Below the pieces are notes generated by a model. It was given only the letters and a program-made list of their open reading frames with translations. It had not been told where the DNA came from and searched no databases. This document shows positions 12,377 through 27,138 of a DNA stretch of 64,000 bases, piece by piece. Every line of letters starts with the position of its first letter. The first letter of the stretch is position 1. A program made the position numbers and the translations under genes. Source of the DNA: an uncultured bacterium (GTDB taxonomy: Bacteria > Desulfobacterota > Deferrimicrobia > J040); the NCBI GenBank assembly GCA_964429585.1, contig CAYSCN010000008.1, positions 7,530 through 71,529 on the forward strand, read 5' to 3'.

Positions 12377-13532
12377 AGAGACTGCAGTACTCCTCTTTCA
12401 TTATTTCCCACCGAACCTTCTCGAACTTTTCGTACGCGTTCCTGACCATGGTTTCCCTTTTCTTCGGGTCCAGATACAGCTCGTAAATGCAACGAGCCAG
12501 GTCTTCAACGTTCTCGGATTCGAAGTATTTCAAACAGGAATCATCGGAGCCGAAAAATTCCTCCACCGCCCTCGTCCGGGTAATCACCACCGGCTTCCTC
12601 ATTGAGATCAACTCAAACATCTTGTTGGTGTGGACAAGGTCCGAATACGCATTTCGGACTACCGGAACCACTCCCAAATCCGCCCGTGCCAGCATCGCGA
12701 TCATCTCTTCGTACGGTATCCATCCGTGGAAAAAAACGTATTTTTCGAGCTTCAACCTTTTTACGAGCTTCTTTAACTCCTCCTCGTATTCCCCCACGCC
12801 CAGTATATCCAGACGAATATTGGGGATTCTGTCTTTGAGAATTTCTACAGCCCTTATGGCGTATTCCTGTCCATATCTTTTGACGATTGTGCCGTGGCAT
12901 ATGAGAGCGAATTCGTTCCTCTCCTTCTTTTCGTAATATTCCCTGAATCTGTCAGGGTTGAATTCCAGGTTTGGAACGTTCAGTATCACGGAAATTTTCG
13001 ACGGAAGGGCCCCTCTCTCCACATATGTTCTCTTGAGCTCTTCTGTGACGGTGATTGCGTGATCCGCATACCTGATACTCGCCTGCTCGATGAATTTGAG
13101 AACCCTCTGGGCGAAACCATTTTCAATTCCGAACAGATATCCGAAGAGCTCGGGAGCAGGCTCGTGCAAATCCAGTACTACCCTGGCTCCCATCAGCTTG
13201 GGTATCAAAGTGACAAAGACGAGAAAATCCGGAAGGGTGTTCACCTGAATGTAATCGTATCTCTTCTTGAAGTGTAATCTGCACAGTTTGATCTTGACCA
13301 AGGTGAAAAACGTCAGATAATCAGCTAGATACCTGAGAACCCCCCCTCTTTTTCTCTTGAGGAGAAGGCGATAGATGTTGACCCCTTTATCGAACTCCAC
13401 CTTCTGGTCTCCAGGTCGACCGAGGCAAATAACATCGACTTCGTATCCCTTGGCTGCCAGGGCGAGTGCCTCTTTCCTAACGCGCACATCCGAGGGATAA
13501 CGTCTATGCCTGATAATGCAAACTTTCTTCAT
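12369..13532 (-). CDS. Glycosyltransferase family 4
   Basis: N-terminus MKKVCIIRHRRYPSDVRVRKEALALAAKGYEVDVICL. C-terminal GT-B nucleotide-binding region ...ADLGVVPVVRNAYSDLVHTNKMFELISMRKPVVITR. Confidence 0.75.
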   Translation of the reverse strand: MKKVCIIRHRRYPSDVRVRKEALALAAKGYEVDVICLGRPGDQKVEFDKGVNIYRLLLKRKRGGVLRYLADYLTFFTLVKIKLCRLHFKKRYDYIQVNTLPDFLVFVTLIPKLMGARVVLDLHEPAPELFGYLFGIENGFAQRVLKFIEQASIRYADHAITVTEELKRTYVERGALPSKISVILNVPNLEFNPDRFREYYEKKERNEFALICHGTIVKRYGQEYAIRAVEILKDRIPNIRLDILGVGEYEEELKKLVKRLKLEKYVFFHGWIPYEEMIAMLARADLGVVPVVRNAYSDLVHTNKMFELISMRKPVVITRTRAVEEFFGSDDSCLKYFESENVEDLARCIYELYLDPKKRETMVRNAYEKFEKVRWEIMKEEYCSLFV

Positions 13533-13627: not shown

Positions 13628-14935
13628 TCACCAGCATATGCCCTCGTATCCAGCGAGGGAGTTCACATCCTCTAGTTTCACGTTTATCAAATCTATCACC
13701 TGGAGGTCCCTTCCGTTGTGCTTGATGTATTCCACCACCTCGTCATTTCTCTTTCCTATCACGATAATATCAACGTTATCGAATGCTTCCGACACACTAT
13801 TTTTCAATAAACTTGAAATATGTGGTATGACTTCTACGATATACCGTCTATTTGCACCCCTTATTCTCGCGAGAGAAACTTCAGGATCGTAAATCTTGAC
13901 GTCGTAGCCTTTGCCAATGAGCCTCTCAGTGAGCTCGACGAGGGGGCTCTCTCTCAAATCATCCGTCCCAGACTTAAAACTCAAACCGCATATCCCAACC
14001 TTCTTCCCCCCATTTTTTCTGATCAGGTCAAAAGCCACGTCTATCTGTCTCCTGTTCGCCGGGAGAATCGATTGCAAAAGCGGAATCTCCAGGTCTATTT
14101 CCTTGGCCAGATAAAGGACCGCTCTCAGGTCCTTGGGCAGGCAGGATCCCCCAAAAGCAAATCCCGGCCTGAGATAATATCCCGATATATTCAACTTTCT
14201 GTCCTTGCAAAATATATCCATTACCTCATGGCTATTTATCCCGAGCTTCTTACAAATGTTTCCTATTTCATTCGCGAATGATATTTTCAAAGCGTGAAAG
14301 AGATTGCAGGCGTACTTGATTAGTTCCGCAACCTTTATCTCAGTTCTCACGAGCTCAGCCTTTATCTCGCCATAAAGCTTTTCCACCACGTCACCACTTT
14401 TCTCGTCCAGCTCCCCTATAACGGTGAACGGCGGATTGTAAAAATCGTGGATGGATGAACCCTCTCTCATAAATTCGGGATTCATGCAGACGCCGAAATC
14501 GACTCCAGCTTTCTTGCCCGAAGTTTTCTCCAGTATCGGCACTATTACGTTCTCTGTTGTTCCCGGCAAAACGGTACTCCTGACGATAACCACGTGATAT
14601 GACGAGTTCCGGGACAGGGCCTCACCGATATCACTCGCGACTTTTTGAATATGCCTGAGATCAAGACTTCCATTTTCCCTGCTGGGAGTTCCCACGCAGA
14701 CGAAGGACACGTCAGCGCCCGGGATTTCATCTGTAGTTGCTCTCAGATTTCCAGACGCCACCACATCACCTATCAGCTCCTCGAGACCCTCTTCCACGAT
14801 TGGACTTCTACCCGAATTTATTATCGAAACTTTCTCTTCATCTATGTCGATACCCGTCACATGGTGGCCTTTTTTGGCCAGGCACGCAGCGGACACACAT
14901 CCCACGTAGCCCATGCCGTAAACGTTTATTCTCAT
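13628..14935 (-). CDS. Nucleotide-sugar 6-dehydrogenase, GDP-mannose 6-dehydrogenase (AlgD)-like
   Basis: N-terminal Rossmann fold MRINVYGMGYVGCVSAACLAKKGH. Motifs GRSPIVEEGLEEL and catalytic LRPGFAFGGSCLPKDLRAV. Overall resemblance to AlgD rather than Ugd (PIYEPGL) type. Confidence 0.8.
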   Translation of the reverse strand: MRINVYGMGYVGCVSAACLAKKGHHVTGIDIDEEKVSIINSGRSPIVEEGLEELIGDVVASGNLRATTDEIPGADVSFVCVGTPSRENGSLDLRHIQKVASDIGEALSRNSSYHVVIVRSTVLPGTTENVIVPILEKTSGKKAGVDFGVCMNPEFMREGSSIHDFYNPPFTVIGELDEKSGDVVEKLYGEIKAELVRTEIKVAELIKYACNLFHALKISFANEIGNICKKLGINSHEVMDIFCKDRKLNISGYYLRPGFAFGGSCLPKDLRAVLYLAKEIDLEIPLLQSILPANRRQIDVAFDLIRKNGGKKVGICGLSFKSGTDDLRESPLVELTERLIGKGYDVKIYDPEVSLARIRGANRRYIVEVIPHISSLLKNSVSEAFDNVDIIVIGKRNDEVVEYIKHNGRDLQVIDLINVKLEDVNSLAGYEGICW

Positions 14936-15864
14936 TTAAAAACCTCCTTTTTTACGTGATCTTTCCAAAATCTGGCAACTTCCCTGGGAAGTGGATTCCA
15001 GAACATACCCCCGAACCTCTCACGGGCGTAAACCAAGAATTCCTCGTATATTTCGACCGGATATTCTTCTCTTCCCCGCTCACCATCGAAACTCATGTAA
15101 TCGGGGTGCGTGTTGAGCAGTGCCATCCCACCTTTGTCCGAAATCCATTCCAGCTTCCTCCTCCATATGCGGAAGTCTTTTTCCCCCATCAGGACAAACA
15201 GCGTAAAATCCTGTGGTAAAGTGTATGGCAATTCAACATATCCTTTACCCGGACGACTCCTCTCCACGTAGAAAGGAAATATGGTCGATACCCCATCTGG
15301 TTGCGGCTCGAAAGGGTCGGTGTCGAAAGTCGAAGAATCGTACTCTATACACAATTCGCCAATCCACTCGAGGTTGTGATGCATCGCCGGCGACCGAAAC
15401 CCCACAGCGCCCCAATCACTGATGTAACGATTGATTTTTCCGGCACGTTCCTGGAATATCTTCCATGAGCTGAAAAGCTTTCCATCGTGATTAAGCCCGT
15501 GCACACCTACCTCAAAACCCATCTCTTCCAAACGCTTTCTCAGTGATTCCGGCGTGTTATATTTTTCCGGAACAAAGTTGAACGAAGATTTGAACCCCAA
15601 TTTCTTCTCGAGCTCGGCTAGCCTCAATGTCCTTTCGAGGCCTCTACCAGTATCCACGTCGTGCGTCAACACCAATGCGAATTGCTTTCCATCAGGCCAG
15701 CCTCCCCACCCCTCAGGGGGATCACCCGCTCTCTCATCTATCGGCCATATCTCTTCGCACAGCTCCATCTTTCTCCTGACCAGCGATCTCCTCACGTAAA
15801 TCTGTATGAATCGGGGGATGATCGGCTTGAACCGGTAGTAAATGTATTTCTTTAATTTATTCAA
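14932..15864 (-). CDS. Polysaccharide deacetylase (CE4/NodB-homology)
   Basis: NodB motifs LTHDVD and HGLNHD. Start overlaps the dehydrogenase gene (ATGA coupling). Confidence 0.8.
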   Translation of the reverse strand: MNKLKKYIYYRFKPIIPRFIQIYVRRSLVRRKMELCEEIWPIDERAGDPPEGWGGWPDGKQFALVLTHDVDTGRGLERTLRLAELEKKLGFKSSFNFVPEKYNTPESLRKRLEEMGFEVGVHGLNHDGKLFSSWKIFQERAGKINRYISDWGAVGFRSPAMHHNLEWIGELCIEYDSSTFDTDPFEPQPDGVSTIFPFYVERSRPGKGYVELPYTLPQDFTLFVLMGEKDFRIWRRKLEWISDKGGMALLNTHPDYMSFDGERGREEYPVEIYEEFLVYARERFGGMFWNPLPREVARFWKDHVKKEVFK

Positions 15865-15924
15865 CTTAACACCTTGTTAGGTAAGGACAAATGGCATTAC
15901 CTAGAAATACCGGCGAGCCTTTTC

Positions 15925-16722
15925 TCAATACACAGCGATGACAGATTCTCCAGCTTTTACTTCGTCCCCGGGCCCCACAGTGGAAACCAGGCCAGGCCTA
16001 TGAGGAATCAAAACATCAACCTGAGAGCCGAAACGAATCATTCCAAGCTTCTGACCGGCAACGACTTCTTCTCCTTCCTCGACGTAGGAGCATATTCTCC
16101 TGACCAGCCTGGACGCTATCTGCACCACGCCAACCTCGAGGTCTCCATTCTGGATAATAGTCAGGACCCTCTCGTTTTCAAGGAGGGATTCCTTTTTCTT
16201 CAGGGAGAAGAATCCACCCTGAATCCTCTTCAGCATTCTCACTCTTCCTGGAATGGGAACTCTGTTTACGTGAACGTTCAACAGGTTCATACCTATCCCT
16301 ATGTGAATCCCCGAATCGGGAATAAGATTCTCGTGAATGAACTCAACAAGCGGTATCTTTTTCCCCTTCTTGACCGCAAATGGGAATTCTCCGCTTTTTA
16401 TCTCTTTTACATACAAAACCGTCCCATCGGCAGGAGAAATAATCTGTCCCTCCCCTTCAGGAGGAACCCGCTCTGGGTCCCGGAAAAAAAACAGAAGCGT
16501 AAAAGCGCCGGTTATCGCAACAGCCACGAAAACCCCTGCGGAGACCTGAAGTATCGGTTCTCCCACCGAGAGATATTTTCCAAGGGCAAATGAAAAATAC
16601 GCCGAAACAAGACCCATGACAATGGACCAGAGAACGACGATTTTCATCTTCAACTCCCACTTATTCCCCAGGGGTATGAAAATCAGAAGAGGCACCAAAA
16701 AAGCGAAGAAATAGACCATCAT
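15925..16722 (-). CDS. Phosphatidylserine decarboxylase-family (pyruvoyl-dependent) membrane protein
   Basis: N-terminal TMs. C-terminal region ...IRFGSQVDVLIPH resembles the PSD proenzyme cleavage/pyruvoyl-forming site (G-S). Size typical of short archaeal/bacterial PSD-related proteins. Confidence 0.55.
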   Translation of the reverse strand: MMVYFFAFLVPLLIFIPLGNKWELKMKIVVLWSIVMGLVSAYFSFALGKYLSVGEPILQVSAGVFVAVAITGAFTLLFFFRDPERVPPEGEGQIISPADGTVLYVKEIKSGEFPFAVKKGKKIPLVEFIHENLIPDSGIHIGIGMNLLNVHVNRVPIPGRVRMLKRIQGGFFSLKKKESLLENERVLTIIQNGDLEVGVVQIASRLVRRICSYVEEGEEVVAGQKLGMIRFGSQVDVLIPHRPGLVSTVGPGDEVKAGESVIAVY

Positions 16723-16765
16723 ATCCGTCTCCCGTTATTCAATAAATTACCAAGAAAAGCATTTT

Positions 16766-17944
16766 TCAAAATCCCCTCCTCCACCACAGATAAGGAATCA
16801 TCACGTATTCCATCAAAAAAGGAAGAGGATCTTTCATCGAAAACACCGCGTATTCCCTTTTACCTTTCAGGGATTCTATATATTCGGAAATACTCATCCT
16901 TCCAGATATTATCTCCTTCGCAACCGTAGGCACATCGGTTATCCACCTGACCCACTTCACCCCTATCTCGGGTCTCAGTCCATTTTGCACAGGTTCTCCT
17001 ACCATCAACCTGAAAAGAAGATACGGCAGATTCAACCCCGATGCCTTGGCAAGGGTGTGCCAACCCCAGGGCCGGCCGTTGATTTCGATGAATTTGAAAC
17101 ACCCGTCTTTTTCATCCCTCATGAACTCCACCTCGGCGAGCCCGAAATAACCTATTTCCTTCAAAAGGGCAGATGCCATTTCCCCAATTTCGGGGAGGTT
17201 GACCGACTCCGCAAATGTGGTGGCCTGCCCGAAATCCATAGGGTGCTGTCGACTTCTCCTCGCCGCCATTCCAGCCACTACCCTCTCACCATCAAACAAG
17301 ACAACGTATGAGTAAAGGTTCTTGGGGCCCCCCTCTATCATTTCCTGAACAACTATCAATTCCGGCTCAACAAATTCGGACATTTTCCTGAATTCCTCGA
17401 TCAACTCTTTCCTGGTATCTACTCTGACGGCCTTCTTCCTGGTCCTGGGGAAGTAATTCTCCTTGAAGCTAGGCTTCAAAACGAGAGGAAAGCGAGGCTC
17501 CTGAGACAGGATATCTTCTATACCTTTCCCCCTGTACATCCTCGGGATGGGTATTGACAGCTTTTCCGCGACCTCGTAGGCTTCTTTTTTCACGTAGAAT
17601 TTCCTTACCACATCCCAGGGCGGAACGGGTATCCGATAGTATTTCCCCAACTCTTCCCTGTTGACCGACAGCTCCTTTACAATCTCGTCGTTATTCGGGT
17701 AGACGACCCAGCCTTCGAGCTTTTCCTCCTTCGCCAGCTCTATCAGGTACTCCGCGAAGCGCCCCCCTGAAAGAAGGTCCCTTTTGAACGCTCTCCTTCT
17801 GACGTAGCGGGAATACCTCGAAATAGACCATTCATACTCTACCAGAAAAACCTGAACCCCTTGCTCCGAGAGGCTCCTTATCACGCCGAGCCCCTGAAAG
17901 TCTCCGCCCAGGATCAGGGCTCCCGGCTTTCCCGTATTCTTCAC
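16766..17944 (-). CDS. ATP-grasp family ligase (paralog 1 of 3)
   Basis: ATP-grasp core: FPLVLKPS...(K), IVVQEMIEGG, FGLAEVEFMRD..FKFIEINGRP. Paralogous to 18050-19294 and 20572-21825. Confidence 0.7.
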   Translation of the reverse strand: MKNTGKPGALILGGDFQGLGVIRSLSEQGVQVFLVEYEWSISRYSRYVRRRAFKRDLLSGGRFAEYLIELAKEEKLEGWVVYPNNDEIVKELSVNREELGKYYRIPVPPWDVVRKFYVKKEAYEVAEKLSIPIPRMYRGKGIEDILSQEPRFPLVLKPSFKENYFPRTRKKAVRVDTRKELIEEFRKMSEFVEPELIVVQEMIEGGPKNLYSYVVLFDGERVVAGMAARRSRQHPMDFGQATTFAESVNLPEIGEMASALLKEIGYFGLAEVEFMRDEKDGCFKFIEINGRPWGWHTLAKASGLNLPYLLFRLMVGEPVQNGLRPEIGVKWVRWITDVPTVAKEIISGRMSISEYIESLKGKREYAVFSMKDPLPFLMEYVMIPYLWWRRGF

Positions 17945-18049
17945 AATTTCCTCCTTCTATCCATGAACATAAATTTCATCATCTAGTAACACTCTGGAAT
18001 CGATATTAGTTCCACAGGAAACACCACAATAGAAACGTGTTTTCTCATT

Positions 18050-19294
18050 TCAGCCTTCATGGCGGGAATGATGAAGGCGAGATGCAAATTTTTTGATTCC
18101 AGATCTAATCAATTTAAAAACTCTCATTATGAATGGAACTATATCCCCGATGCTGAAAACGGAGAAAACCCTGCTTTGAAAGTATGGGGTCAAAAAACTC
18201 TTCGAAACAAAGCCGATTCCCTTGTATTTCAATATGTAATGCAAATCCTTGAACTCATCCACCCAGTATGTATCTCCCTTTATCTGCTTGCTCTCTCTCG
18301 CCATCGACACCATCTTCTTTCTGTTGAAGAATGAAAAGTAATATAACGCGGGAAAATTGATTCCACACCTGGTGGAAAGATATATCGACCGATTGAATCT
18401 GGGATTTATCTCCATAAGTTTATAAGTGCCGGTTCTCTTATCATTCTTGAACTCGGCGCAAACGTACCCCTCATAATTTACGTTTTTCAATAAAGAATCG
18501 ACCGAATCACGCACTTCGCTCACGTCTTTGCATTTTCTGACTACCGCCGGGACTCCAAATTCCCTGGGCATCATCCTCATTTTCCTGGAAGTCATGCATT
18601 TTAAGGGCGCCCCATCTATGAAAAGCACGTTGTAATTTATTCCCTCCGCATCATCTCCCGGAATGTACTCCTGCACCATCACCTCCAGTCCAAGCCTTTC
18701 AGCCCTATCTATCTCAGCCTTAAGCTCATCTGAGGTGAAAACCATCGTCAATTTCCTATCGAGTGCATCAACATACTTGTGACTGAATACCGGCTTGATT
18801 ATTAACGGAAATTTTAGTTCACGCACCTTTTCCACGTTCTCTATGGAATCCAGAGTTATCGTTCTCGGAATCGGTATTCCATTTGATTCTGCCAATTTAT
18901 ACATTTCTCTCTTGTTGAGTAATCTCTCCTTCACACTCCATTCACGAGAGTCAAGGATGAAGAAATCCGACAGTTCTTCCCTAAAATTGGAGACAGCCAG
19001 AACAGTCGCATCATCACATGGAAACAATATACCTTCCCCGTTTTCCCTGGCAATTGCCTTCAACCCGTTTATGAAATCGAGTTCTTCTGTTCTCGGGTCG
19101 CCTGTAAAATAGCTTTTCGTAACATACTTCGAGAAATGTCCCATATCCATTTCATCGTAACACACGGAAACTATTGGTATATCGTGCTCCCCCAGCGACC
19201 TTATGACACCAAGCCCCACTGTATGCGTCGACAACACGTATGCCGGAATTTTACCCGAAATTGAAGTCATCAAGCCAACCTGTCGCTTCCCCAC
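18050..19294 (-). CDS. ATP-grasp family ligase (paralog 2 of 3)
   Basis: FPLIIKPVFSHK, MVQEYIPGDD, YVCAEFKNDKRTGTYKLMEINPRF ATP-grasp motifs. Confidence 0.7.
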   Translation of the reverse strand: MGKRQVGLMTSISGKIPAYVLSTHTVGLGVIRSLGEHDIPIVSVCYDEMDMGHFSKYVTKSYFTGDPRTEELDFINGLKAIARENGEGILFPCDDATVLAVSNFREELSDFFILDSREWSVKERLLNKREMYKLAESNGIPIPRTITLDSIENVEKVRELKFPLIIKPVFSHKYVDALDRKLTMVFTSDELKAEIDRAERLGLEVMVQEYIPGDDAEGINYNVLFIDGAPLKCMTSRKMRMMPREFGVPAVVRKCKDVSEVRDSVDSLLKNVNYEGYVCAEFKNDKRTGTYKLMEINPRFNRSIYLSTRCGINFPALYYFSFFNRKKMVSMARESKQIKGDTYWVDEFKDLHYILKYKGIGFVSKSFLTPYFQSRVFSVFSIGDIVPFIMRVFKLIRSGIKKFASRLHHSRHEG

Positions 19295-19444
19295 GTTTAT
19301 TTGAAATACTCAAAATCCAAATCTATCCATTACCGAAATTCATTTCCAGATCCTCCTCCATACCAGAGCTTTCACTTGAAACAAATGATATGTTTTAATA
19401 TCCGGAGGTTAGTGACATTTCATTCAACCATTTCAGCACTATAA

Positions 19445-20575
19445 TTACCCTAAATGTTTGTAAAGTAAAGCTCCTGCCATTTTGAGCAGAAACATCGGAG
19501 TTTTCCTGAAAACCTTCCTGGCCACCAGACCGGCTCTAGGATAATACTCCTTGAAAGATTCTTCCTTGATGTCGAGCTTGTAGTAGTTTATCGATATCTC
19601 TTCTGTCCCCCAGCCCCTTTTAAACTGCCTCAAACCATCATTGTCGAAGTCTGTAGAACCGAAACAGAAAGTCCTGTATCTGTTTTCTATGGACCACTTT
19701 ATGGCTTCCCACATTACCAGGTTGTTGGGACGCAAATGCAGGTAATTTCTATCCGATGCACCATATCGATAAAGCACATTACCTCCAAAATTGTAAAAAA
19801 TACCACCAGCCACGTTCCTCCCATTTATAGAAGCCAGAACCACAAACCCCAATCCTTTTGAAATTATCTGCTCATACTCGCTTAGAATGAATTTCCAGGG
19901 ATAAGGCGGAAGGTTCTGCACGAGCTTCCTTGTCATACAATAAAGTCGATAAAACTCTCTAAGTGAATCCAGACTCCTGTAAATCCTTGCCTCGACTCCT
20001 TCTTTCTCGGCCTTCTTTATGTTTCGTTTCGTGCTGCTTCTGAAATTTTTTAGGACCTCACCCTCATCTCCGTCGAGCGTGAGCACATGCCTGAAGTAGC
20101 GGGCAGAAGGCTCCCCCCAGCCGCCATGCTCGCCAATCATCTTGAAAAGGACGTATTTCCAATTTCTTCTTCTCCCATGCTCGACTATCTCCCTGTAGAG
20201 CTCTTCAAATTCTGAATCATCGTAAAGGAGCGGTTCGCAATAATCTGCGAATGGAAGCGAGACCCCTCTGAGCCCGGTTACTGGACTGTTGACTTCCATT
20301 ACTGGAAAAACGGATACACCTTCATTCGAACTTAACGTGAAATAGACGGGTTCGTAACCGTAAGTCTTCTTGAGGACTTTTACCCAGTTGGTCGAGTGAA
20401 AAATGGTCGCGTTAGGATGAGCCAATACGAACTCATCCCAACCCGGGTATTCAAGTGGGTTTATTATGTGAATCATCGCATCTTCCTTTTGAATGATATT
20501 ACCTGTTGAAGGTCTCCGGAGAAGGAAAGACGGCGCCCCACGGTAAGGCCTTGTATGACGAGCCTTTTGTCTCAT
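19445..20575 (-). CDS. FemAB-like / GNAT-fold aminoacyl-transferase family protein (polysaccharide-locus associated)
   Basis: Likely true start MIHIINPLEYPGWDEF (~20476). Architecture and motifs (FHSTNWVKVL..., two GNAT-like halves) resemble the FemAB-related proteins found in EPS/exosortase-type loci. Confidence 0.65.
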   Translation of the reverse strand: MRQKARHTRPYRGAPSFLLRRPSTGNIIQKEDAMIHIINPLEYPGWDEFVLAHPNATIFHSTNWVKVLKKTYGYEPVYFTLSSNEGVSVFPVMEVNSPVTGLRGVSLPFADYCEPLLYDDSEFEELYREIVEHGRRRNWKYVLFKMIGEHGGWGEPSARYFRHVLTLDGDEGEVLKNFRSSTKRNIKKAEKEGVEARIYRSLDSLREFYRLYCMTRKLVQNLPPYPWKFILSEYEQIISKGLGFVVLASINGRNVAGGIFYNFGGNVLYRYGASDRNYLHLRPNNLVMWEAIKWSIENRYRTFCFGSTDFDNDGLRQFKRGWGTEEISINYYKLDIKEESFKEYYPRAGLVARKVFRKTPMFLLKMAGALLYKHLG

Positions 20576-21825
20576 TCCGACATCAGGCCGTTTCTGGTCA
20601 TGAGCAAAAGAGCTCCTCTTTTGAGTTTCCTAAAAGCCAGGTTTCTGATTTCCTGAAGCACCCCAACGAAGAAAGGCCCCGGGTCGGAGAGGGAAAAAAT
20701 GGCATAAGCCTTTTTTCCTCTTATGCTTCTCAACCACTGAATAAAATTCAATTCTCCCCGCCTCCAGTAATAATACGACGACCTGAGGTCCTGATAAATG
20801 TGTATCCACTTTACGCCGTTGTATTTCTGCTCCAGGTTTTTCGGGAGAGGTAGCCCCGTCAGGTCACAATACATGGAGTAAAGAAATTCGACTCCACTTT
20901 TTTCCGCCGTTGCGGAGCGACCCGTGGGACGCCCTATATTGGGTTCGATGATGTAATACTTGCCCGTCCTTCTGTCGAATTTCATCTCCAAATAACCGAA
21001 ACCTCTTCCATTTATCAACTCGAACAGACGAATAGTTTCTTGCCTGACCACATCGTTTTCACACTCGACTGCAAGACACGCCTGACCCGTCTTCGGTGGC
21101 CACTGCCTGACTTTTTTGCTGACAAAAGTAACAAGGGGGCGGCCTTCCTTGTCGAAATAACAGTTACACGTGTAATGGTCCGTTTCGTCACCTTCAACGT
21201 ACTGCTGCACTATCATTTGCTCCGCGTAAGGACTGTACTCTCGATACAGGTTCAACAATTCATCCGGGCCTTCTACCTTGAAAGCCTTTTGCTCAGTGAA
21301 CGCGCTCCACTCAGGCGTACGATATGAAGGCTTCAGAAAACATGGATACGAAATATTCCGGGAAATTCTCTCTACATCCTTTATACTCTCGACAAAATGC
21401 GTTTCCGGTATGGGAAGCCCTTTCTCTGCCGCAAACCTGTAAAATCGCACCTTGTCTATCATGGTCACTACCATCTCATGTTCGGGCAGAAGGACGTGAT
21501 AATACTCTTCGAGGCGAGCGCGGTGTCGAGACACTATGAGCACATTCAGGTCATGGCATGGATACAAGACACCTTTCACATCCAGCCCCTTCCCTATCTC
21601 AATGAGAGTGTCTATCAGAGAATCGTCCTCAGTATTCGCGACAACGATTTTCTCGCATACCCGGGTCGTGCAATTGTAATGTCCCCGCACGTTGGAGATT
21701 GCAATCACGGGCACACCACGAGATGCCAGAATGCGAGCCGCCTGGAGGCATTGCATGAACTCGAGGCCGATCAACACAGCCCTGGGTCTGTCCGGCGGAT
21801 GTTTTTTCTTTTTGAGGATATACAT
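20572..21825 (-). CDS. ATP-grasp family ligase (paralog 3 of 3)
   Basis: YPCFLKPSYR, MIVQQYVEGDE, FGYLEMKFDRRTGKYYIIEPNIGRP ATP-grasp motifs. Stop overlaps the FemAB-like gene start. Confidence 0.7.
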   Translation of the reverse strand: MYILKKKKHPPDRPRAVLIGLEFMQCLQAARILASRGVPVIAISNVRGHYNCTTRVCEKIVVANTEDDSLIDTLIEIGKGLDVKGVLYPCHDLNVLIVSRHRARLEEYYHVLLPEHEMVVTMIDKVRFYRFAAEKGLPIPETHFVESIKDVERISRNISYPCFLKPSYRTPEWSAFTEQKAFKVEGPDELLNLYREYSPYAEQMIVQQYVEGDETDHYTCNCYFDKEGRPLVTFVSKKVRQWPPKTGQACLAVECENDVVRQETIRLFELINGRGFGYLEMKFDRRTGKYYIIEPNIGRPTGRSATAEKSGVEFLYSMYCDLTGLPLPKNLEQKYNGVKWIHIYQDLRSSYYYWRRGELNFIQWLRSIRGKKAYAIFSLSDPGPFFVGVLQEIRNLAFRKLKRGALLLMTRNGLMSE

Positions 21826-21854
21826 GATGTAAAGGGAAAAAGGATGAAAAGTCG

Positions 21855-22967
21855 TCAGACAAATGCCAATAATAATCTTTTCACCGCATCAGCGGTGTAT
21901 TCAATTTGCTTGACCGAAATCTCCGGGTATATCGGCAGCGAAACGAACTCTTCCGCGCTGCTTTCCGCAACGGGGAAACTGCCCTTTTCATATCCGAGAA
22001 ACCCGTAAGCATCCTGAAGGTGAATTGGAACGGGATAGTGAATCCCACAATATATCCCTTTCTCCCGAAGAGCTTCTATCAACTGATCCCTCTTCTTCAC
22101 TCTGATGACGTAGAGGTGATATACATGAGTTCCGTAGTCTGCCTCAACTGGCGTGACGATTCCCTCCGCATCACCCAGCAAGTCGTTGTAAAGATCGGCG
22201 ACCACCCTCCGTGATTTGTTGTACTCGTCGAGGTACTTCAGTTTGACTGAAAGAACTGCCGCCTGAATCCCATCCATTCTGCCGTTCCACCCTATGAAGT
22301 CGTGTTTGTATTTACGCGACTGGCCGTGGTCCCTCAGCATCCGAATCTTTCTATCTATCTCCGGATTGTCGGTCACAACGGCACCCGCTTCGCCGTAAGC
22401 ACCCAGATTTTTCCCGGGATAAAAACTGAAACATCCGACATCTCCTATCGAGCCCGCCTTCCTACCCTTGTAAACGGCACCGTGTGATTGGGCGGCATCC
22501 TCGATCACGAATAGACCATATTTCTTCGCTATCTCCATAACGAGGTCCATATCCGCCATCTGACCAAAAAGGTGAACCGGTATTATAGCCTTAGTCCGTT
22601 CGGTGATCATGGCTTCAATCTGTTGCGGATCGATGTTGTAGGTGTCCTCCAGAACATCCACGAATACAGGCTTTGCGCCACAAAACGAAATCGCCTCCGC
22701 CGTGGCAATAAAAGTATTCGGCACTGTTATGACTTCATCCCCTGGCCCAACCCCTATGGCGAGAAGAGCGAGCCACAGAGCTTCCGTCCCGCTGCCGACC
22801 CCAATGGCATATTTGGTTCCACAATACGCCGCAAACTCTTCCTCGAATTTCTCGACAAAAGGCCCTCCTGCAAATGCTGTCTTCTCGAAAACACCTTCGA
22901 GAGCTTCGTTGATTTCTTCTCTGATAGATTCGTACTGTGTCTTTAGATCTAAAAATGGCACTTTCAT
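21855..22967 (-). CDS. DegT/DnrJ/EryC1/StrS-family PLP-dependent sugar aminotransferase (WbpE-like)
   Basis: MKVPFLDLKTQYESIREEI...; conserved PLP-binding region; family-typical length (370 aa). Confidence 0.9.
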   Translation of the reverse strand: MKVPFLDLKTQYESIREEINEALEGVFEKTAFAGGPFVEKFEEEFAAYCGTKYAIGVGSGTEALWLALLAIGVGPGDEVITVPNTFIATAEAISFCGAKPVFVDVLEDTYNIDPQQIEAMITERTKAIIPVHLFGQMADMDLVMEIAKKYGLFVIEDAAQSHGAVYKGRKAGSIGDVGCFSFYPGKNLGAYGEAGAVVTDNPEIDRKIRMLRDHGQSRKYKHDFIGWNGRMDGIQAAVLSVKLKYLDEYNKSRRVVADLYNDLLGDAEGIVTPVEADYGTHVYHLYVIRVKKRDQLIEALREKGIYCGIHYPVPIHLQDAYGFLGYEKGSFPVAESSAEEFVSLPIYPEISVKQIEYTADAVKRLLLAFV

Positions 22968-23521
22968 TTTTTCACCTCGTCTAGTTTTCTGAGTACTCTG
23001 GCCGGATTTCCCACGACAACAGTTCGGGGTGGCACGTCTCTCGTAACCACGCTGCCGGCTCCCACAATCGCGCCCTCACCTATTGTCACCCCGGCCAGTA
23101 TGGTTGCGCTCGAACCGATGGAAGCGCCCTTTTTCACGACGGTAGGGATACACACCCAATCTTCCTCGGTTTGGAGCTTTCCATCCTCTGTCGTGGCCCT
23201 CGGATAGAGATCGTTTATGAAAGTGACGTTGTGACCAACAAATACACCGTCTTCGATCTTTACGCCCTCGCATATGAACGTGTGGCTCGAGATCTTGCAG
23301 TTTTTCCCGATGCATGCGTTTTTCTGTATTTCCACGAAGGTGCCGATCTTGGTGTTGTCGCCTATCTCACACCCATATAGATTGACAAATGCGTAAATTT
23401 TCACGTTTTCTCCGAGTTTTACATCGGGCGCAATACGGCACGTGTTCATAACATCCTGAGCCATGGGTTCCCCCTGTTTCTGTTGTTTTTGTGATATCAA
23501 ACTTAGATATTCATCTGACAA
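22964..23521 (-). CDS. Hexapeptide-repeat (left-handed beta-helix) sugar N-acetyltransferase (WbpD/PglD-like)
   Basis: Tandem [LIV]G hexapeptide repeats (IGDNTKIGTFVEI..IGKNCKIS..VFVGHNVTF..IGSSATILAGVTIGEGAIVGAGSVV). Start probably at MAQDV. Overlaps both neighbouring genes. Confidence 0.85.
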   Translation of the reverse strand: MSDEYLSLISQKQQKQGEPMAQDVMNTCRIAPDVKLGENVKIYAFVNLYGCEIGDNTKIGTFVEIQKNACIGKNCKISSHTFICEGVKIEDGVFVGHNVTFINDLYPRATTEDGKLQTEEDWVCIPTVVKKGASIGSSATILAGVTIGEGAIVGAGSVVTRDVPPRTVVVGNPARVLRKLDEVKK

Positions 23522-24554
23522 AAGCCAATTTGTTGGGAAGGAGTTCTACTCTAGAGCCGCCGCTTTTCAGAGATATGGTTGCCGCTTCCAGAATTCTAAC
23601 AACCTCCATTCCCTCATAACCGCTTGTAATTGGCCTCTGTCTCTTTTCGATACACTCCAGAAAGTGTCCTGTCTCGACCTTCAAGGGCTCGATCTGTTTT
23701 ACGTAGGGAATGTACATGTCGCCGTAATGGTAAGAATAATGAAATTCAGCGAAAGTATCGTAGTGCGGCGGTCTCTCGACCCTTTTGTCGTAAATTTTTA
23801 TCTTTTCGAGAGGCTCCGTATCATTGTAAACTAGCATTCTTTTACTTCCCACGAAGACCATCTCCCTGACCTTATTCGGATCAAGCCAGCTGCTGTGCAC
23901 CGTTGCGAATCCTCCATTCGGGAAGTCGATCGTCATGTTGGTGACATCTTCGATTCCCTTCGTAATGTGTGCCTTCCCCTGACAGTTGACCGTTTTGGGC
24001 GGGATGTTGAGAATGTACAGAATTATTGAAATGCAATGCGGCGCGAGGTCCCACGTGACGTTGATGTCCTCCTGGAAAAGACCGAGATTGAGCCTCCTGG
24101 AGCTGACATAGTAGATCTCCCCCAGGTCTCCAGATTCGACTATCTCCTTGATTCTCCTGACAGGAGCAGAATATATGAATGTGTGCCCCACCATCAAAAC
24201 GAGGTTTCTGTCCTCGGCAACCTCAACCATCTCCTCGCACTCTTTCACCGAGCGGGCCATCGGTTTTTCCACGAAGGTATGTTTTCCGGCGTGGAGGGCC
24301 TTCATGGCAATCTCATGATGGGTCCTGACAGGCGTTGCAATGGCCACCGCATCCACTTCCGGATCTCCAGTAACGTCATCGACGTTTTTCGTGGTCTTCA
24401 CTTCGGGGTAAAGTTTCTTGATATAAGCAAGCCTCTCCTCGCTCAAATCACAGACCCACTTGACTTCACAGTTGTCATGGAACCTGAAATTCCTCGTAAG
24501 ATTGGGACCCCAGTAACCGCACCCGATGACGCCTACTTTAATAATTTTCGACAT
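23511..24554 (-). CDS. Gfo/Idh/MocA-family NAD-dependent sugar-nucleotide oxidoreductase (WbpB-like)
   Basis: N-terminal Rossmann KVGVIGCGYWGPNLTRNF; Gfo/Idh/MocA fold. Confidence 0.85.
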   Translation of the reverse strand: MSKIIKVGVIGCGYWGPNLTRNFRFHDNCEVKWVCDLSEERLAYIKKLYPEVKTTKNVDDVTGDPEVDAVAIATPVRTHHEIAMKALHAGKHTFVEKPMARSVKECEEMVEVAEDRNLVLMVGHTFIYSAPVRRIKEIVESGDLGEIYYVSSRRLNLGLFQEDINVTWDLAPHCISIILYILNIPPKTVNCQGKAHITKGIEDVTNMTIDFPNGGFATVHSSWLDPNKVREMVFVGSKRMLVYNDTEPLEKIKIYDKRVERPPHYDTFAEFHYSYHYGDMYIPYVKQIEPLKVETGHFLECIEKRQRPITSGYEGMEVVRILEAATISLKSGGSRVELLPNKLAFVR

Positions 24555-25662
24555 ATTCCCTCCTTCTCCTGGATCGAATCTTCCCCGTGGCTTGTTCCAT
24601 CAATACAGGAAATGTTTTTAGCATTATGAAAAAATCCCTGACCATCGATATTTTCGCGCCATATCTTATGTCCAGCCTTATCATTTCTTTGAATGTGGTT
24701 TTGTTTTTCCCGTTCACCTGCCACAACCCGGTCAGCCCTGGAACCATCTCCACCCTTTTCTTCTGCCACTGGTCGAACTCCTCGAACTCGTAGGGAATGC
24801 ACGGCCTCGGTCCCACAAGGCTCATCTCCCCTCTGAGCACATTTATCAACTGAGGCAACTCGTCTATACCCAGCTTTCTCACGATTCCGCACAGCGGAAT
24901 CACCCTTTCATCCTTTTTCTCGTCCAGCTTTTCCATCGGTTTTTCGCTCTTTATCAATGTTCTCAGATACTCTTTGTGAACTTCCTGAGGAGCACCGATG
25001 TGCATGGTTCTGAGCTTGTACATGGTGAAAATTTCTCCCATGTATCCCACCCTTTCCTGCTTAAAAATCACAGGCCCCGGTGAGACCATGCGCAGATACA
25101 GGGCGTATAACAGGAAAAAGGGAAACAAGACTGACATCACAACGAGGGAAACAAAAACATCTATTGCCCTTTTCCAGAAAGGCAACGGAGACGATGTGAA
25201 CCTGGAGAAAACCCCTCCACTTTTTCTTTTCAGAGATGGAAGGTGAAATGGCTTTCTCCTGTCCCTCATGTCAGTGGTGTTCCACCATCTATCTGGATAT
25301 GAGTAAAGCCGATATCCGATCCTTATGTCCTTCTGCGAACAAAACTCCGTTATGCTGCTCAACAGGTTCCAGGCTCCATCCACCGGTGTGTGAGGAAGTA
25401 GGAGCCCTATTATGGTGCCCTCTTCCATGAACCCAAGTTCGTCTGTAACCCTCATCCTTTCCCTCAAATACTTGATTAGTTCGGACGCTTTTTTCTCCTC
25501 CTGGCCATCCTCTGGGATTATTTCGATCAGCGAAAAAGGCAACCCCGTCCTATCCGATCTCTCTCTCTCCTTCAACAGTGCCTTATGGAACTCTTCCTCG
25601 CTCAGGATTCCGTCAACGCACTTTCCATTCTTTTTTGTGACCTCGATTATAGAAGAAAACAC
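24538..25662 (-). CDS. Polyprenyl-phosphate sugar-1-phosphate transferase (bacterial sugar transferase, WbaP/PglC/EpsL-like) with N-terminal cytoplasmic degenerate GGDEF-like domain
   Basis: C-terminal Bac_transf motifs: SPGPVIFKQERVGYMGEIFTMYKLRTM, DELPQLINVLRGEMSLVGPRP, GLTGLWQVNG. Single TM (IDVFVSLVVMSVLFPFFLLYALYL). N-terminal ~150 aa align to a GGDEF fold with an RxxD I-site-like motif (RVTD) but EEGTI in place of GG(D/E)EF. GTG start with GAGGAGG RBS. Confidence 0.8.
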   Translation of the reverse strand: MFSSIIEVTKKNGKCVDGILSEEEFHKALLKERERSDRTGLPFSLIEIIPEDGQEEKKASELIKYLRERMRVTDELGFMEEGTIIGLLLPHTPVDGAWNLLSSITEFCSQKDIRIGYRLYSYPDRWWNTTDMRDRRKPFHLPSLKRKSGGVFSRFTSSPLPFWKRAIDVFVSLVVMSVLFPFFLLYALYLRMVSPGPVIFKQERVGYMGEIFTMYKLRTMHIGAPQEVHKEYLRTLIKSEKPMEKLDEKKDERVIPLCGIVRKLGIDELPQLINVLRGEMSLVGPRPCIPYEFEEFDQWQKKRVEMVPGLTGLWQVNGKNKTTFKEMIRLDIRYGAKISMVRDFFIMLKTFPVLMEQATGKIRSRRRREYVENY

Positions 25663-25739
25663 TGAACCACCTCCTCAAAAGGAATTGCTGAGCTGATTTC
25701 TTATATTTTTTTTATGAAAAAATCCTATTTATCTTTCAA

Positions 25740-25754
25740 ACAATTTACATGCCA
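25740..25754 (-). promoter_or_regulatory. Second copy of the 15-mer; sigma54-type element TGGCATGTAAATTGT (GG-N10-GT) ~75 nt upstream of the priming transferase gene
   Basis: ACAATTTACATGCCA on + strand is identical to 5585-5599 apart from one flanking base. Located in the 296-bp intergenic region between the OMP and PGT genes. Confidence 0.4.
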
Positions 25755-25958
25755 CAAGGTATTACGTCTCTTTACGGATAACCTTCTGTTTTTTTGTCGT
25801 TCTCGGGTTAGGTTCGATGAGCTCTTGGAATAGACGGTAATTTATAGAATTATCTAATTAAAATGGGGAAAAATTTGCTCAGCAGAAATAATTATTTTAC
25901 TTTTATTGGAACTGATAAAGGCCTCGTTGCCAGTTGGTGGGTCTCGATTTCCACAGCA

Positions 25959-27125: not shown

Positions 27126-27138
27126 TTTGGAATCCTTT

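Follow-up and report, generated by a model that had tools for sequence, protein, structure and literature searches.

An ATP-grasp ligase and decarboxylase gene pair within a Wzx/Wzy polysaccharide operon, and its possible role in the decoration of an amino sugar

Positions 16766–21825 (minus strand) of the 64-kb stretch of DNA analysed (the window) consist of exactly four open reading frames. AG1 (417 aa, positions 20572–21825) is an ATP-grasp carboxylate-amine ligase of COG3919-type subfamily 1 and displays weak Pfam ATP-grasp and CPSase-like NCBIfam matches. It is followed by a FemAB/GNAT (VimA-like) transferase with Pfam FemAB and Acetyltransf_6 domains (343 aa from M34, positions 19445–20476, the open reading frame extending to 20575). 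AG2, a ligase of subfamily 2 (406 aa as called, positions 18050–19270, open reading frame to 19294), is assigned from the gene call, Pfam/NCBIfam matches and its paralogy to AG1 and AG3. AG3 (392 aa, positions 16766–17944) is a subfamily 3 ligase and the partner of a PSD-like gene, as shown by fold, motifs and synteny.

These genes are part of a Wzx/Wzy polysaccharide operon, all on the minus strand. The span covered by an earlier note on this DNA ends at position 16766 and misses by a single gene the most conserved partner, which encodes a PSD-family pyruvoyl decarboxylase-like protein (265 aa, positions 15925–16722; Pfam PS_Dcarbxylase, fold) with three N-terminal membrane helices. This gene and, after it, one for a divergent CE4-like protein (a polysaccharide deacetylase homologue of 310 aa that lacks a signal peptide, positions 14932–15864; assigned by family profile and considered a VimE analogue) are the two most informative neighbours outside that span. 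Next is a UDP-sugar 6-dehydrogenase (UGDH, WbpA/Ugd-like; positions 13628–14935) with three UDPG_MGDP_dh Pfam domains.

The annotated assembly/export genes lie downstream in the same operon (positions 306–13532) and comprise GT4 (12369–13532), Wzy-like (10892–12376), GT4 (9840–10847), Wzx (8336–9850) and GT4 (7150–8283) genes, together with two unknown proteins, a beta-helix protein, a tyrosine-kinase-like ATPase and a Wzz-like protein. On the other side of AG1 is a WbpB/WbpD/WbpE-like cassette (21855–24554), assigned by Pfam: a DegT aminotransferase (WbpE-like, 21855–22967), a hexapeptide N-acetyltransferase (WbpD-like, 22964–23521) and a GFO/IDH/MocA oxidoreductase (WbpB-like, 23511–24554). 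The cassette is given its role by analogy with the Wbp pathway already known (cited in PMC7468200). The annotated operon head (24538–28317) encodes a polyprenyl-phosphate sugar-phosphate transferase (24538–25662), an outer-membrane beta-barrel protein (25959–27125), a Wza-like exporter (27139–27828) and an RfaH/NusG-like antiterminator (27829–28317).

Intergenic gaps are approximately 95 bp (AG1–Fem), 174 bp (Fem–AG2), 105 bp (AG2–AG3) and 43 bp (AG3–PSD). The earlier note described stop/start overlaps among the four genes as a sign of co-translation, but this does not hold. The single overlap, that of the AG1 stop codon with an ATG at 20575, is present only if the Fem-like protein carries a 33-residue N-terminal extension. 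No homologue shares this extension: at least 30 relatives align from residue 34–35. Because of these alignments, and because public gene calls also start at M34 (coordinate 20476), M34 is taken as the true start. A single AG1-Fem-AG2-AG3-PSD operon is still plausible, since a search of the block for intergenic terminators yielded no convincing one. The Wbp-like cassette genes overlap one another by 11 and 4 bp and there is a 4-bp overlap between the UGDH and CE4-like genes. The AG2 region is GC-poor (0.42 versus 0.48).

The three ligases align with each other over their full length with 25%–31% identity (E-values of 1e-32 to 1e-41), AG1 showing 25%–28% identity to AG2 and AG3. All three have the ATP-grasp Lys and the E-x-N-x-R Mg/ATP motif; the invariant residues in AG3 are K157, E287, N289 and R291. 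The AF2 model of AG3 is a three-domain ATP-grasp structure (pLDDT 91), and Foldseek matches are to the generic ATP-grasp fold. The Fem-like protein passes the Pfam cut-offs for FemAB (59.7 bits vs 24) and Acetyltransf_6 (55.3 vs 22). Thus the locus does contain three diverged ATP-grasp paralogs of ~400 aa around a FemAB gene, as first described.

AG3 has 837 relatives at E ≤ 1e-10, and at E ≤ 1e-30 there are 660 clusters at 50% identity. The close homologues of the ligases (46%–66% identity) are all encoded in polysaccharide loci and are uncharacterised, being annotated as “carboxylate-amine ligase” or assigned to COG3919. Against named enzyme families the ligases score 15–60 bits (cut-offs 143–1114 bits), and it is uncharacterised CPSase-like models that score best. 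Biotin carboxylase and cyanophycin synthetase, of the kind of pathway that the earlier note named as counting against its reading, match at the superfamily level alone, as does Ddl (12%–20% identity). Relatives of the ligases also occur fused to GT4, CE4, a Fem-like GNAT, a second ATP-grasp or a PSD domain. Both the polysaccharide setting of the homologues and the fusions to GT4, CE4 and Fem-like GNAT favor a probable amino-acid/peptide-type decoration module, as was originally suggested.

The triad itself is not a conserved unit. AG1-type and AG3-type ligases are never found together in the 163 other loci examined, and AG2 with AG3 in four. In those four (L004, L007, L008, L029) AG2 relatives of 34%–38% identity adjoin AG3-PSD together with methyltransferases. 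AG1 orthologues (50%–56% identity), which their sources annotate as “carboxylate--amine ligase” or as “D-aspartate ligase”, usually adjoin a PEP mutase, a 2-hydroxyacid dehydrogenase, a CE4 deacetylase and a Fem-like gene. The PEP mutase is a true one (402 bits vs a cut-off of 319) and, with the 2-hydroxyacid dehydrogenase, would be expected to yield an acid without an amine. The usual partners of AG1 were looked for in the window and are absent.

The pairing of AG3 with the PSD-like gene is conserved and physical. In 62 loci with an AG3 relative of ≥40% identity, from about a dozen phyla, a PSD gene is within 400 bp downstream of that relative in 50, and in a further 6 it is located at another place in the locus. 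Moreover, PSD and ATP-grasp are naturally fused in two proteins (P0393 and P0394). The PSD-like protein has a Pfam PS_Dcarbxylase score of 142 bits but is below all NCBIfam PSD equivalog cut-offs (best 167 vs 183). Residues D99 and H151 and the G232-S233 cleavage motif are kept in at least 56 of 57 members of the PSD clade. The AF2 model (pLDDT 86) shows helices at positions 2–21, 26–50 and 56–79; its fold best matches those of E. coli PSD and of PsiD, a tryptophan decarboxylase of the PSD family whose substrate is a free amino acid. A search of 80 loci for the CDP-alcohol phosphatidyltransferase (phosphatidylserine synthase) motif gave no hit; therefore AG3-PSD is not a housekeeping pssA-psd pair. 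In 12 loci a formyltransferase-like gene, whose relatives act on amines, is close downstream of PSD, in most of them directly after it. Many uncultured bacterial phyla contain the ligase-decarboxylase pair, and the literature searches revealed no study devoted to it.

The CE4-like protein belongs to no family at default thresholds (Pfam Polysacc_deac_1, E-value = 0.0066). Its family profile matches PDB 3rxz, a “polysaccharide deacetylase”, over nearly the full length (E-value = 9.4e-8), and nearly all remaining profile matches are CE4-type deacetylases/esterases. Invariant residues are H68-D69, H122 and H126. The CE4 assignment is a distant one. A member of this 310-aa family is present in 22 of 61 PSD-containing loci. 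UGDH scores 431 bits with TIGR03026, above the cut-off. The presence of this UDP-glucose/GDP-mannose dehydrogenase-family gene shows that the locus can make a uronic acid, as the earlier note had it. The Wbp-like genes and the Fem gene are below curated equivalog cut-offs, e.g. the best NCBIfam match of the Wbp-like oxidoreductase is UDP-GlcNAc 3-dehydrogenase (169 bits). For the Fem-like protein the best model is TIGR03019 pepcterm_femAB, matched over the full length with 111 bits (cut-off 260); VimA matches the same model (PMC7468200).

It is tentatively proposed, with somewhat less than even confidence, that the tailoring block (positions 14932–24554) attaches acyl groups derived from amino acids to one amino sugar of the repeat unit. 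What is observed directly is the gene content, the families and folds to which the proteins are assigned, the intactness of the catalytic motifs, and the conservation of AG3 and PSD as neighbors and as fusions; from these we infer which substrates are used, which atom is the acceptor and in what order the steps occur. WbpA/B/E/D-like enzymes would form a 2,3-diacetamido-2,3-dideoxy-hexuronic acid, from which the cytoplasmic CE4-like enzyme would take off an N-acetyl group, as proposed for VimE. The freed amine would then be re-acylated: the VimA-like Fem/GNAT protein may add an amino acid, with aminoacyl-tRNA presumably as donor, and the ATP-grasp ligases would activate free carboxylic acids as acyl-phosphates.

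AG3 and the membrane-anchored PSD-family decarboxylase may install a decarboxylated acidic amino acid, giving an arm of the beta-alanyl or gamma-aminobutyryl type that ends in a primary amine. Pyruvoyl decarboxylases require a free alpha-amine and alpha-carboxylate; therefore the amino acid would not be held through either group. Asp or Glu, a choice that is purely conjectural, could be ligated via its side-chain carboxyl before alpha-decarboxylation takes place, or decarboxylation could precede ligation. Ahead of flipping and polymerisation of the unit, AG1, AG2 and Fem may cap free amines or extend them into a short side chain of peptide-like character. The tandem ATP-grasp fusions support such serial ligation.

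The earlier note regarded C6 of the uronic acid as the obvious acceptor; this is less supported than acylation of a sugar amine. A CE4-like deacetylase is present in 25 and UGDH in 6 of the 35 large AG3-PSD loci, a count drawn from AG3-related loci alone and covering at least 15 kb of sequence each with flanks of at most 10 kb, so that UGDH may be encoded farther off. Related ligases go with, or are fused to, CE4 deacetylases (fusions P0421 and P0460), Fem-like GNATs and GT4, and are rarely near uronate dehydrogenases. Because of these associations, the formyltransferase-like gene and the amine-free partners of AG1, the best reading would be that a sugar amine, once freed, is N-acylated with groups that derive from amino acids and of which one is decarboxylated. 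Nor does the published role of VimA, which concerns Ser or Gly on the C2 amine (PMC7468200), agree with a Fem-like enzyme that extends a C6 amide.

Amidation of C6 by at least one ligase, with the Fem-like enzyme decorating another position, is less likely. The target sugar would be a uronic acid and UGDH is two genes from AG3, in the same order as in the closest relatives (L008, L043), while a UGDH-GT4-AG1 adjacency is found in L085, L087 and L096. ATP-grasp+GT4 fusions occur in the ligase family, and with no WbpS/AsnB-type amidotransferase in the window the C6-amidating role is vacant. There is also a precedent: Cj1438C, a TupA-like ATP-grasp fused to a glycosyltransferase, works with the Cj1436 decarboxylase in Campylobacter jejuni HS:2 capsule synthesis and amidates C6 of GlcA with ethanolamine-P or serinol-P (PMC11800379). 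For AG3, the PSD-like protein would generate the amine from an amino acid by decarboxylation (Ser to ethanolamine, as in C. jejuni), PsiD showing that PSD-family enzymes accept free amino acids, or would decarboxylate a Lys/Orn-type residue attached via its side-chain amine. However, no TupA-like Pfam match was found in the ATP-grasp proteins of the locus and no Cj1435-like phosphatase in the operon. For a formyltransferase just downstream of PSD to act, a free amine must be left over, and the CE4 counts and fusions point to N-acylation.

Another proposal, which appears improbable, is that a Wbp/Vim-type “linking sugar” carries an aminoacyl or peptide stem with a terminal amine, which serves as the nucleophile acceptor for a sortase-like transpeptidase of the exosortase type or for the cross-linking of EPS chains. 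VimA-type sugars anchor T9SS cargo, and the same was proposed for PEP-CTERM/exosortase systems (PMC7468200); the predicted product would end in a primary amine. XrtA/PEP-CTERM-associated NCBIfam models are the first or one of the leading matches for at least eight proteins of the locus (chain-length determinant, tyrosine kinase, exporter, PrsR-like, PrsK-like, O-ligase-like, femAB, outer-membrane protein), but all are below curated cut-offs. No exosortase, PorU or other sortase is present among the Pfam-annotated open reading frames of the window, and capping by the formyltransferase of related loci would block the amine. Least probable of all is that the PSD-like protein and ligases make or modify an aminoacylated or ethanolamine-type membrane lipid and are merely co-transcribed with EPS genes (MprF-like logic, with Fem/GNAT): a phospholipid is the canonical substrate of the PSD family, the PSD-like protein has its membrane helices, and Fem/MprF-type GNATs aminoacylate lipids (PMC2922099), but in many phyla the pair sits inside polysaccharide operons, fusions join related ATP-grasps to the sugar enzymes GT4 and CE4, the 80 loci searched yielded no phosphatidylserine synthase motif, and no curated PSD equivalog cut-off is reached.

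Several known systems resemble the locus in part. With E. coli PSD and PsiD the PSD-like protein shares the Pfam domain, fold, D-H-S triad and Gly-Ser self-cleavage motif, but the locus type scores below the equivalog cut-offs, is never beside a PS synthase, and almost always adjoins or is fused with an ATP-grasp ligase in polysaccharide loci. XrtA/PEP-CTERM exopolysaccharide loci have a similar architecture and the same femAB and deacetylase theme, and many locus proteins match the PEP-CTERM-associated models, which are first-ranked for several proteins and second or third for others; scores below every cut-off and the lack of an exosortase among the Pfam-annotated open reading frames of the window set the locus apart. 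In peptidoglycan side-chain synthesis the same two enzyme classes, the D-aspartate ligase Aslfm (ATP-grasp) and FemX/A/B (tRNA-dependent GNAT), attach residues to a free amine on a precursor linked to sugar, and the division of labor between them has been described (PMC2922099). The likeness is one of class and label, “D-aspartate ligase” being the sources' own annotation of many homologues. The locus has no mur genes and its setting is an EPS operon. To our knowledge a decarboxylase partner is not part of peptidoglycan cross-bridge synthesis.

In butirosin synthesis (BtrJ, an ATP-grasp, and BtrK) Glu is attached via its gamma-carboxyl to an acyl carrier protein and decarboxylated to gamma-aminobutyryl by the PLP-dependent BtrK, after which the ATP-grasp adds a residue; the proposed AG3-PSD route would share this chemical logic. 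Cj1436 is also PLP-dependent and its substrate is free L-serine phosphate, whereas the locus decarboxylase is a membrane-anchored pyruvoyl protein. Cj1438C/Cj1436 and the locus would have in common an ATP-grasp amide on a capsule sugar, an amino-acid-derived decarboxylation and a fused or adjacent glycosyltransferase (PMC11800379), but Cj1438C is of another ATP-grasp subfamily than the locus ligases and its acceptor is GlcA C6.

The Wbp/Vim pathway of Porphyromonas gingivalis and Tannerella forsythia consists of WbpA/B/E/D, VimE, VimA, VimF and WbpS; VimE deacetylates, and VimA determines whether Ser or Gly is placed on the C2 amine of the de-N-acetylated Wbp sugar (PMC7468200). The statement of the earlier note that such an arrangement has not been characterised is roughly right for this ATP-grasp subfamily, although this pathway and Cj1438C (PMC11800379) are precedents. 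The locus lacks WbpS, T9SS and PorU, and its CE4-like and Fem-like proteins are distant relatives, below curated cut-offs. It has the UDP-sugar dehydrogenase, GFO oxidoreductase, DegT aminotransferase, hexapeptide acetyltransferase, CE4-type, FemAB/TIGR03019-like and GT4 proteins, and may follow the same logic of deacetylation and then aminoacylation of a sugar amine (PMC7468200). The published pathway papers surveyed name no ATP-grasp ligase and no PSD-like decarboxylase, while the locus has both. By analogy, the ligases and the decarboxylase appear to be add-ons to the published “linking sugar” pathway.

The four genes considered here lie in one long polysaccharide operon that extends from ~28.3 kb down to ~0.3 kb, with all genes of the region on the minus strand. 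Positions 16766–21825, the span singled out in the earlier note, correspond exactly to four open reading frames: an ATP-grasp ligase of 417 aa, termed AG1 (20572–21825), a FemAB-like transferase, termed Fem-like (19445–20575), a second ATP-grasp ligase, AG2 (18050–19294), and a third, AG3 (16766–17944, 392 aa). Directly downstream of AG3 is a gene of the phosphatidylserine decarboxylase (PSD) family (PSD-like, 15925–16722, minus strand). It is followed by a 310 aa open reading frame (CE4-like, 14932–15864, minus strand) that has no family match at default thresholds, and by a UDP-sugar 6-dehydrogenase (UGDH) gene, which overlaps the CE4-like gene by 4 bp.

Upstream are genes for an RfaH-like antiterminator, a Wza-like exporter, an outer-membrane barrel protein and a polyprenyl-phosphate sugar-phosphate transferase, together with an overlapping cassette of GFO oxidoreductase, hexapeptide acetyltransferase and DegT aminotransferase. 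This cassette is the WbpB/D/E gene set for 2,3-diacetamido sugars. The WbpA/B/D/E-like proteins belong to the correct families and their genes form a tight cassette, with scores at the family level only. Farther downstream are GT4 transferases, Wzy, Wzx and a chain-length/tyrosine-kinase pair. The operon tail (all minus strand) has a right-handed beta-helix/NosD-like protein (2797–4368), a protein without a family that shows a weak pectate-lyase-like signal (4368–5627) and another without a family (5730–7103); these tail genes might encode a polymer-modifying lyase or epimerase.

The stop/start overlap of AG1 with the Fem-like gene, noted earlier, does not hold: it requires a 33-residue extension of the Fem-like protein that is found in no homologue, and both homologues and public gene calls place the start at M34 (coordinate 20476). 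Thus the four genes are separated by ~95, 174 and 105 bp, with no convincing intergenic terminator. The 414 aa open reading frame of AG2 gave no match in an exact-sequence look-up because its start codon is wrong. The source contig was also found in JGI 3300023442 and SRR9849955.

Several other features of the window were recorded. A single tRNA-Met gene (32201–32277, minus strand) has the two-component regulators of the EPS operon on one side and an FG-GAP repeat protein (32329–33729) on the other. The longest open reading frame at 39825–41108 (plus strand) is probably an antisense shadow of a 410 aa minus-strand open reading frame (39846–41078), which is within a branched-chain-amino-acid-type ABC transporter cluster (36516–45785) that also holds two AMP-binding enzymes and a DUF169 protein. 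The presence of a multihaem cytochrome c (56797–58047, plus strand), of sigma-54 regulators and of outer-membrane proteins suggests that the source is a Gram-negative anaerobe respiring metals or sulfur.

As had been proposed, AG1, AG2 and AG3 are true paralogues; they share 25%–31% identity over their full length (E-values 1e-32 to 1e-41). The AlphaFold (AF2) model of AG3 (pLDDT 91) displays a canonical three-domain ATP-grasp fold, and Foldseek relates it with a probability of 1.0 to biotin carboxylase, L-amino-acid ligases, PylC and PurT (TM 0.55–0.66). AG1 and AG2 can be aligned to AG3 from end to end. Residues K157, E287, N289 and R291 of AG3 are invariant among 16 sequences, as are K165, E294, N296 and R299 of AG1 among 17 sequences, and AG2 has the motif MEINPRFNR, i.e. 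the E-x-N-x-R Mg/ATP motif. In Pfam, AG3 matches PF02786 (26.1, gathering score 19.8) and AG2 matches PF15632 (30.0, gathering score 29.1); AG1 gives sub-threshold matches only to the ATP-grasp models (20.4 vs. 27; 19.3 vs. 19.8). With the fold, the ATP-binding lysine and the E-x-N-x-R motif present, AG1–3 belong to the ATP-grasp superfamily of carboxylate-amine/thiol ligases.

A check for homologues in unrelated pathways showed biotin carboxylase and similar enzymes to be related at the superfamily level only. Biotin carboxylase, D-Ala-D-Ala ligase, cyanophycin synthetase, RimK, LysX and PurT were rejected as identities of AG1–3: they display 12%–20% identity and 15–30 bits against cut-offs of 143–1114, and no carboxyltransferase, BCCP or pathway partner genes of such enzymes are present. 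The peptidoglycan-precursor context of an Aslfm-type D-aspartate ligase is also lacking: no mur genes were seen in the window and 163 related loci, all of which are polysaccharide loci.

AG3 has hundreds of relatives with 46%–66% identity, all uncharacterised; an exhaustive search yielded 660 clusters (50% identity) that match AG3 at E ≤ 1e-30. Their source labels are "D-aspartate ligase", "ATP-grasp carboligase" and "ATP-grasp domain-containing protein". The first of these is a JGI label carried by homologues of both AG1 and AG3. A scan of one genome per species found 80 AG3 loci, nearly all in metagenome-assembled genomes (MAGs), from Aminicenantes, Ignavibacteria, Chloroflexota, Planctomycetota, Kiritimatiellia, Syntrophales, Entotheonella and others.

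AG3 and the PSD-family decarboxylase form a conserved functional unit, which the earlier note had missed. The pairing was counted in 62 loci with an AG3 relative of at least 40% identity and 1 kb or more of downstream sequence: 50 have a PSD-like gene on the same strand, within 400 bp downstream, and another 6 have one at some other place in the locus. Two public proteins (P0393, P0394) are natural fusions of an ATP-grasp nearest to AG3 with a PSD-like domain that is 43%–44% identical to that of the window. Other AG3 relatives are fused to Polysacc_deac_1 domains (P0421, P0460), to Acetyltransf_6/FemAB domains (P0439, P0486, P0435), to GT4 glycosyltransferases (P0492, P0480, P0383) or to a second ATP-grasp. 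The PSD gene is missing from most of a distant AG3 subgroup (33%–39% identity). Loci of this subgroup without PSD (L060–L068, L073, L075, L079) are mainly from Syntrophales and Deltaproteobacteria MAGs, and several of them (e.g. L061, L063, L065) show a different set of conserved neighbours.

The PSD-like protein has a PS_Dcarbxylase domain (Pfam 142 bits, cut-off 22), a D-H-S triad, a Gly-Ser autocleavage site and a PSD fold; D99, H151 and the G232-S233 self-cleavage site are kept in at least 56 of 57 members of its clade. Three membrane helices are found at its N-terminal region. The fold resembles E. coli PSD and PsiD, a PSD-family tryptophan decarboxylase (best Foldseek matches 6l06 and 7cn*), and a PDB sequence search with this protein gave no match. 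None of the 12 NCBIfam PSD-type cut-offs is reached (best 167.4 vs. 183). A crude regular-expression search detected no PS-synthase motif in the AG3-PSD loci. A housekeeping psd gene was rejected on the basis of the synteny and fusion with ATP-grasp, the sub-cut-off scores and the lack of this motif, and a bona fide phosphatidylserine (or archaetidylserine) decarboxylase on the scores, the lack of the motif and the conserved partner, which is an ATP-grasp ligase.

The profile of the CE4-like family matches a PDB entry annotated as "polysaccharide deacetylase" (3rxz, E-value = 9.4e-8) over almost its full length, and nearly all other profile matches are CE4-type deacetylases/esterases; the Pfam match is weak (E-value = 0.0066). 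H68-D69, H122 and H126 are invariant, which represent the H-D and H-x3-H motifs, and a signal peptide is absent. These profile matches and motifs, together with the lack of a signal peptide, characterize the 310 aa protein as a putative divergent cytoplasmic CE4-like enzyme. The Fem-like protein exceeds the Pfam cut-offs for FemAB (59.7 vs. 24 bits) and Acetyltransf_6 (55.3 vs. 22 bits). It aligns over its full length (positions 3–330 of 330) with TIGR03019 at 111.4 bits, below the equivalog cut-off of 260.35, and its gene shares the operon with the CE4-like and WbpA/B/D/E-like genes.

Neighbours were counted in the AG3-PSD loci alone, namely in the 35 for which 15 kb or more of sequence was available, with flanks of up to 10 kb. 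A CE4-like deacetylase of either of two families is present in 25 of the 35 loci, and a CE4-like or DegT gene in 27. A B12-radical-SAM protein is found in 20, a Fem-like gene in 12, a hexapeptide acetyltransferase in 11, a formyltransferase-like gene close downstream of PSD in 8, and UGDH in 6. One block recurs in L018, L019, L030, L049, L051, L058, L066 and others: PGT, SDR (334 aa), CE4 (441 aa), Wzz/tyrosine kinase, AG3 and PSD, followed by a formyltransferase-like gene, a B12-binding radical SAM protein (HpnJ/BchE-like, 163 bits) and GT4. In total, 28 of 61 PSD loci have a radical SAM partner.

The AG1 family is even larger than that of AG3 and has a different habitual context. Its usual neighbours are a CE4 deacetylase with the classical TFDD motif, a PGDH-like 2-hydroxyacid dehydrogenase and a PEP mutase, often with a Fem-like gene. 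The PEP mutase is bona fide (TIGR02320, 402 bits vs. a cut-off of 319; EDKX5NS motif present). None of the PEP mutase, PGDH-like and classical CE4 partners is found in the window. AG1 orthologues with 50%–56% identity are mostly directly downstream of the PGDH-like and PEP mutase genes in polysaccharide loci (L085–L167; examples are L096:13208–15123, L130 and L149). This suggests that these orthologues couple a phosphonate acid, which might be phosphonolactate, to an amine of a glycan; with PEP mutase as the neighbour of this subfamily, a ligase that joins phosphonates to glycans is indicated.

A conserved unit of the triad with a Fem-like gene was rejected, since each ligase subfamily has its own habitual partners and the three are not found together elsewhere. 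AG2-type genes are found beside AG3-PSD in four loci, with methyltransferases, and AG1-type and AG3-type genes never occur together in the 163 other loci. Thus the triad of the window is a mosaic of three ligase subfamilies. The GC content is 0.42 at positions 18001–20000 (AG2 and the Fem-like gene) vs. 0.48 on both sides, which fits a mosaic origin.

Very probably, a repeat-unit sugar receives substituents derived from amino acids through the action of these genes. The functional assignments rest on family, fold, motif, synteny and fusion, with several key proteins below curated equivalog cut-offs. Pyruvoyl decarboxylases need a substrate whose alpha-amine is free for Schiff-base formation and whose alpha-carboxylate, which they remove, is free as well. 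The amino acid handled by the AG3-PSD pair would therefore not be attached via its alpha-amine or alpha-carboxylate. AG3 may couple an amine to Asp or Glu at the side-chain carboxyl, with the PSD-like protein then stripping the alpha-carboxyl; or the PSD-like protein may produce beta-alanine or GABA, which AG3 would then ligate. Both routes would lead to an omega-aminoacyl arm with a terminal primary amine.

The acceptor may be a de-N-acetylated sugar amine. This is favoured by the co-occurrence and fusions with CE4, by the amine-directed neighbours (formyltransferase, Fem-like genes, acetyltransferases), by the usual partners of AG1, which make an amine-free acid, and by the Wbp/Vim precedent, the linking-sugar pathway of Porphyromonas gingivalis and Tannerella forsythia. 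AG1, AG2 and the Fem-like enzyme could cap or lengthen the arm. An AG3-PSD omega-aminoacyl arm on a freed sugar amine, capped or extended by the other three proteins, is put forward as the preferred, though tentative, reading.

The earlier interpretation was correct as to the kind of system, amino-acid tailoring, and probably wrong as to the acceptor, the C6 carboxyl of a uronic acid. Amidation of uronate C6 is a serious but rather unlikely rival; it is favoured by the position of UGDH two genes away, by the uronic-acid nature of the target sugar, by the absence of a WbpS-type amidotransferase, by the precedent for a decarboxylase with an ATP-grasp amidoligase, and by UGDH-GT4 preceding some AG1 orthologues. 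The co-occurrence data are weakly against such a role for AG3 (UGDH in 6/35 vs. CE4-like in 25/35 loci).

It is improbable that the ligases, Fem-like and PSD-like proteins assemble a peptide-like stem with a terminal amine on a sugar of the Wbp/Vim type as a covalent attachment or cross-linking point of the matrix. Such a stem could be the acceptor nucleophile for exosortase-type protein anchoring or could link glycan strands in a peptidoglycan-like mesh; no partner sortase-like enzyme (PorU or exosortase) is found among the Pfam-annotated open reading frames of the 64-kb window. If true, this would provide a concrete biosynthetic route for the long-sought "unidentified compound" of PEP-CTERM-type sorting and the first PSD-family enzyme acting on a glycan-bound amino acid. 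At least eight proteins (306–31994) have XrtA/PEP-CTERM NCBIfam models as their best or among their top matches, all below cut-off: chain-length determinant, tyrosine kinase, exporter, outer-membrane protein, femAB, O-ligase-like, PrsR-like and PrsK-like. A bona fide XrtA/PEP-CTERM locus was rejected, since no exosortase was found among the Pfam-annotated open reading frames and every model match is sub-cut-off.

Amino-acid substituents on surface glycans affect charge, antigenicity, phage recognition and protein anchoring; few of the enzymes that install them are known. If the omega-aminoacyl chemistry is true, the arm would represent a new, predictable glycan modification, the PSD family would be extended past lipids and free amino acids, and a functional name would become available for thousands of probably mis-assigned "carboxylate-amine ligase" and "phosphatidylserine decarboxylase" calls.

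Amino-acid tailoring of surface glycans is a kind of system already known. The ligase-decarboxylase pair is uncharacterised but widespread: polysaccharide loci from many uncultured phyla have conserved it, some of them as a fusion. Literature searches yielded no paper combining PSD, ATP-grasp and polysaccharide, and nothing on ATP-grasp with amide-linked uronic acid in O-antigen clusters. In peptidoglycan cross-bridges, D-Asp is added by ATP-grasp ligases, and Gly and L-amino acids by tRNA-dependent Fem ligases (PMC2922099). The C-terminal domain of Cj1438 amidates C6 of GlcA with ethanolamine-P or serinol-P and is of the TupA-like ATP-grasp family (Raushel group, PMC11800379), whereas AG1–3 have no TupA-like match in Pfam at E ≤ 0.01.

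The linking sugars of P. gingivalis and T. forsythia are 2-N-seryl- or 2-N-glycyl-3-N-acetyl-hexuronic acid, as shown by Veith et al. (PMC7468200). In this pathway, WbpA/B/E/D produce a di-N-acetyl uronic acid, VimE, a CE4 enzyme, is the proposed C2 deacetylase, and VimA, which matches TIGR03019, sets the choice of amino acid added; no decarboxylase appears among the pathway steps considered here. Veith et al. also report the vimA-deacetylase pairing in PEP-CTERM loci, with a common anchoring role as the authors' speculation. ATP-grasp is not mentioned in the Wbp/Vim papers considered here. A TIGR03019 match is common to VimA and the Fem-like protein of the window, and the locus links the recently described Wbp/Vim pathway with three uncharacterised ATP-grasp subfamilies and a PSD-family decarboxylase.
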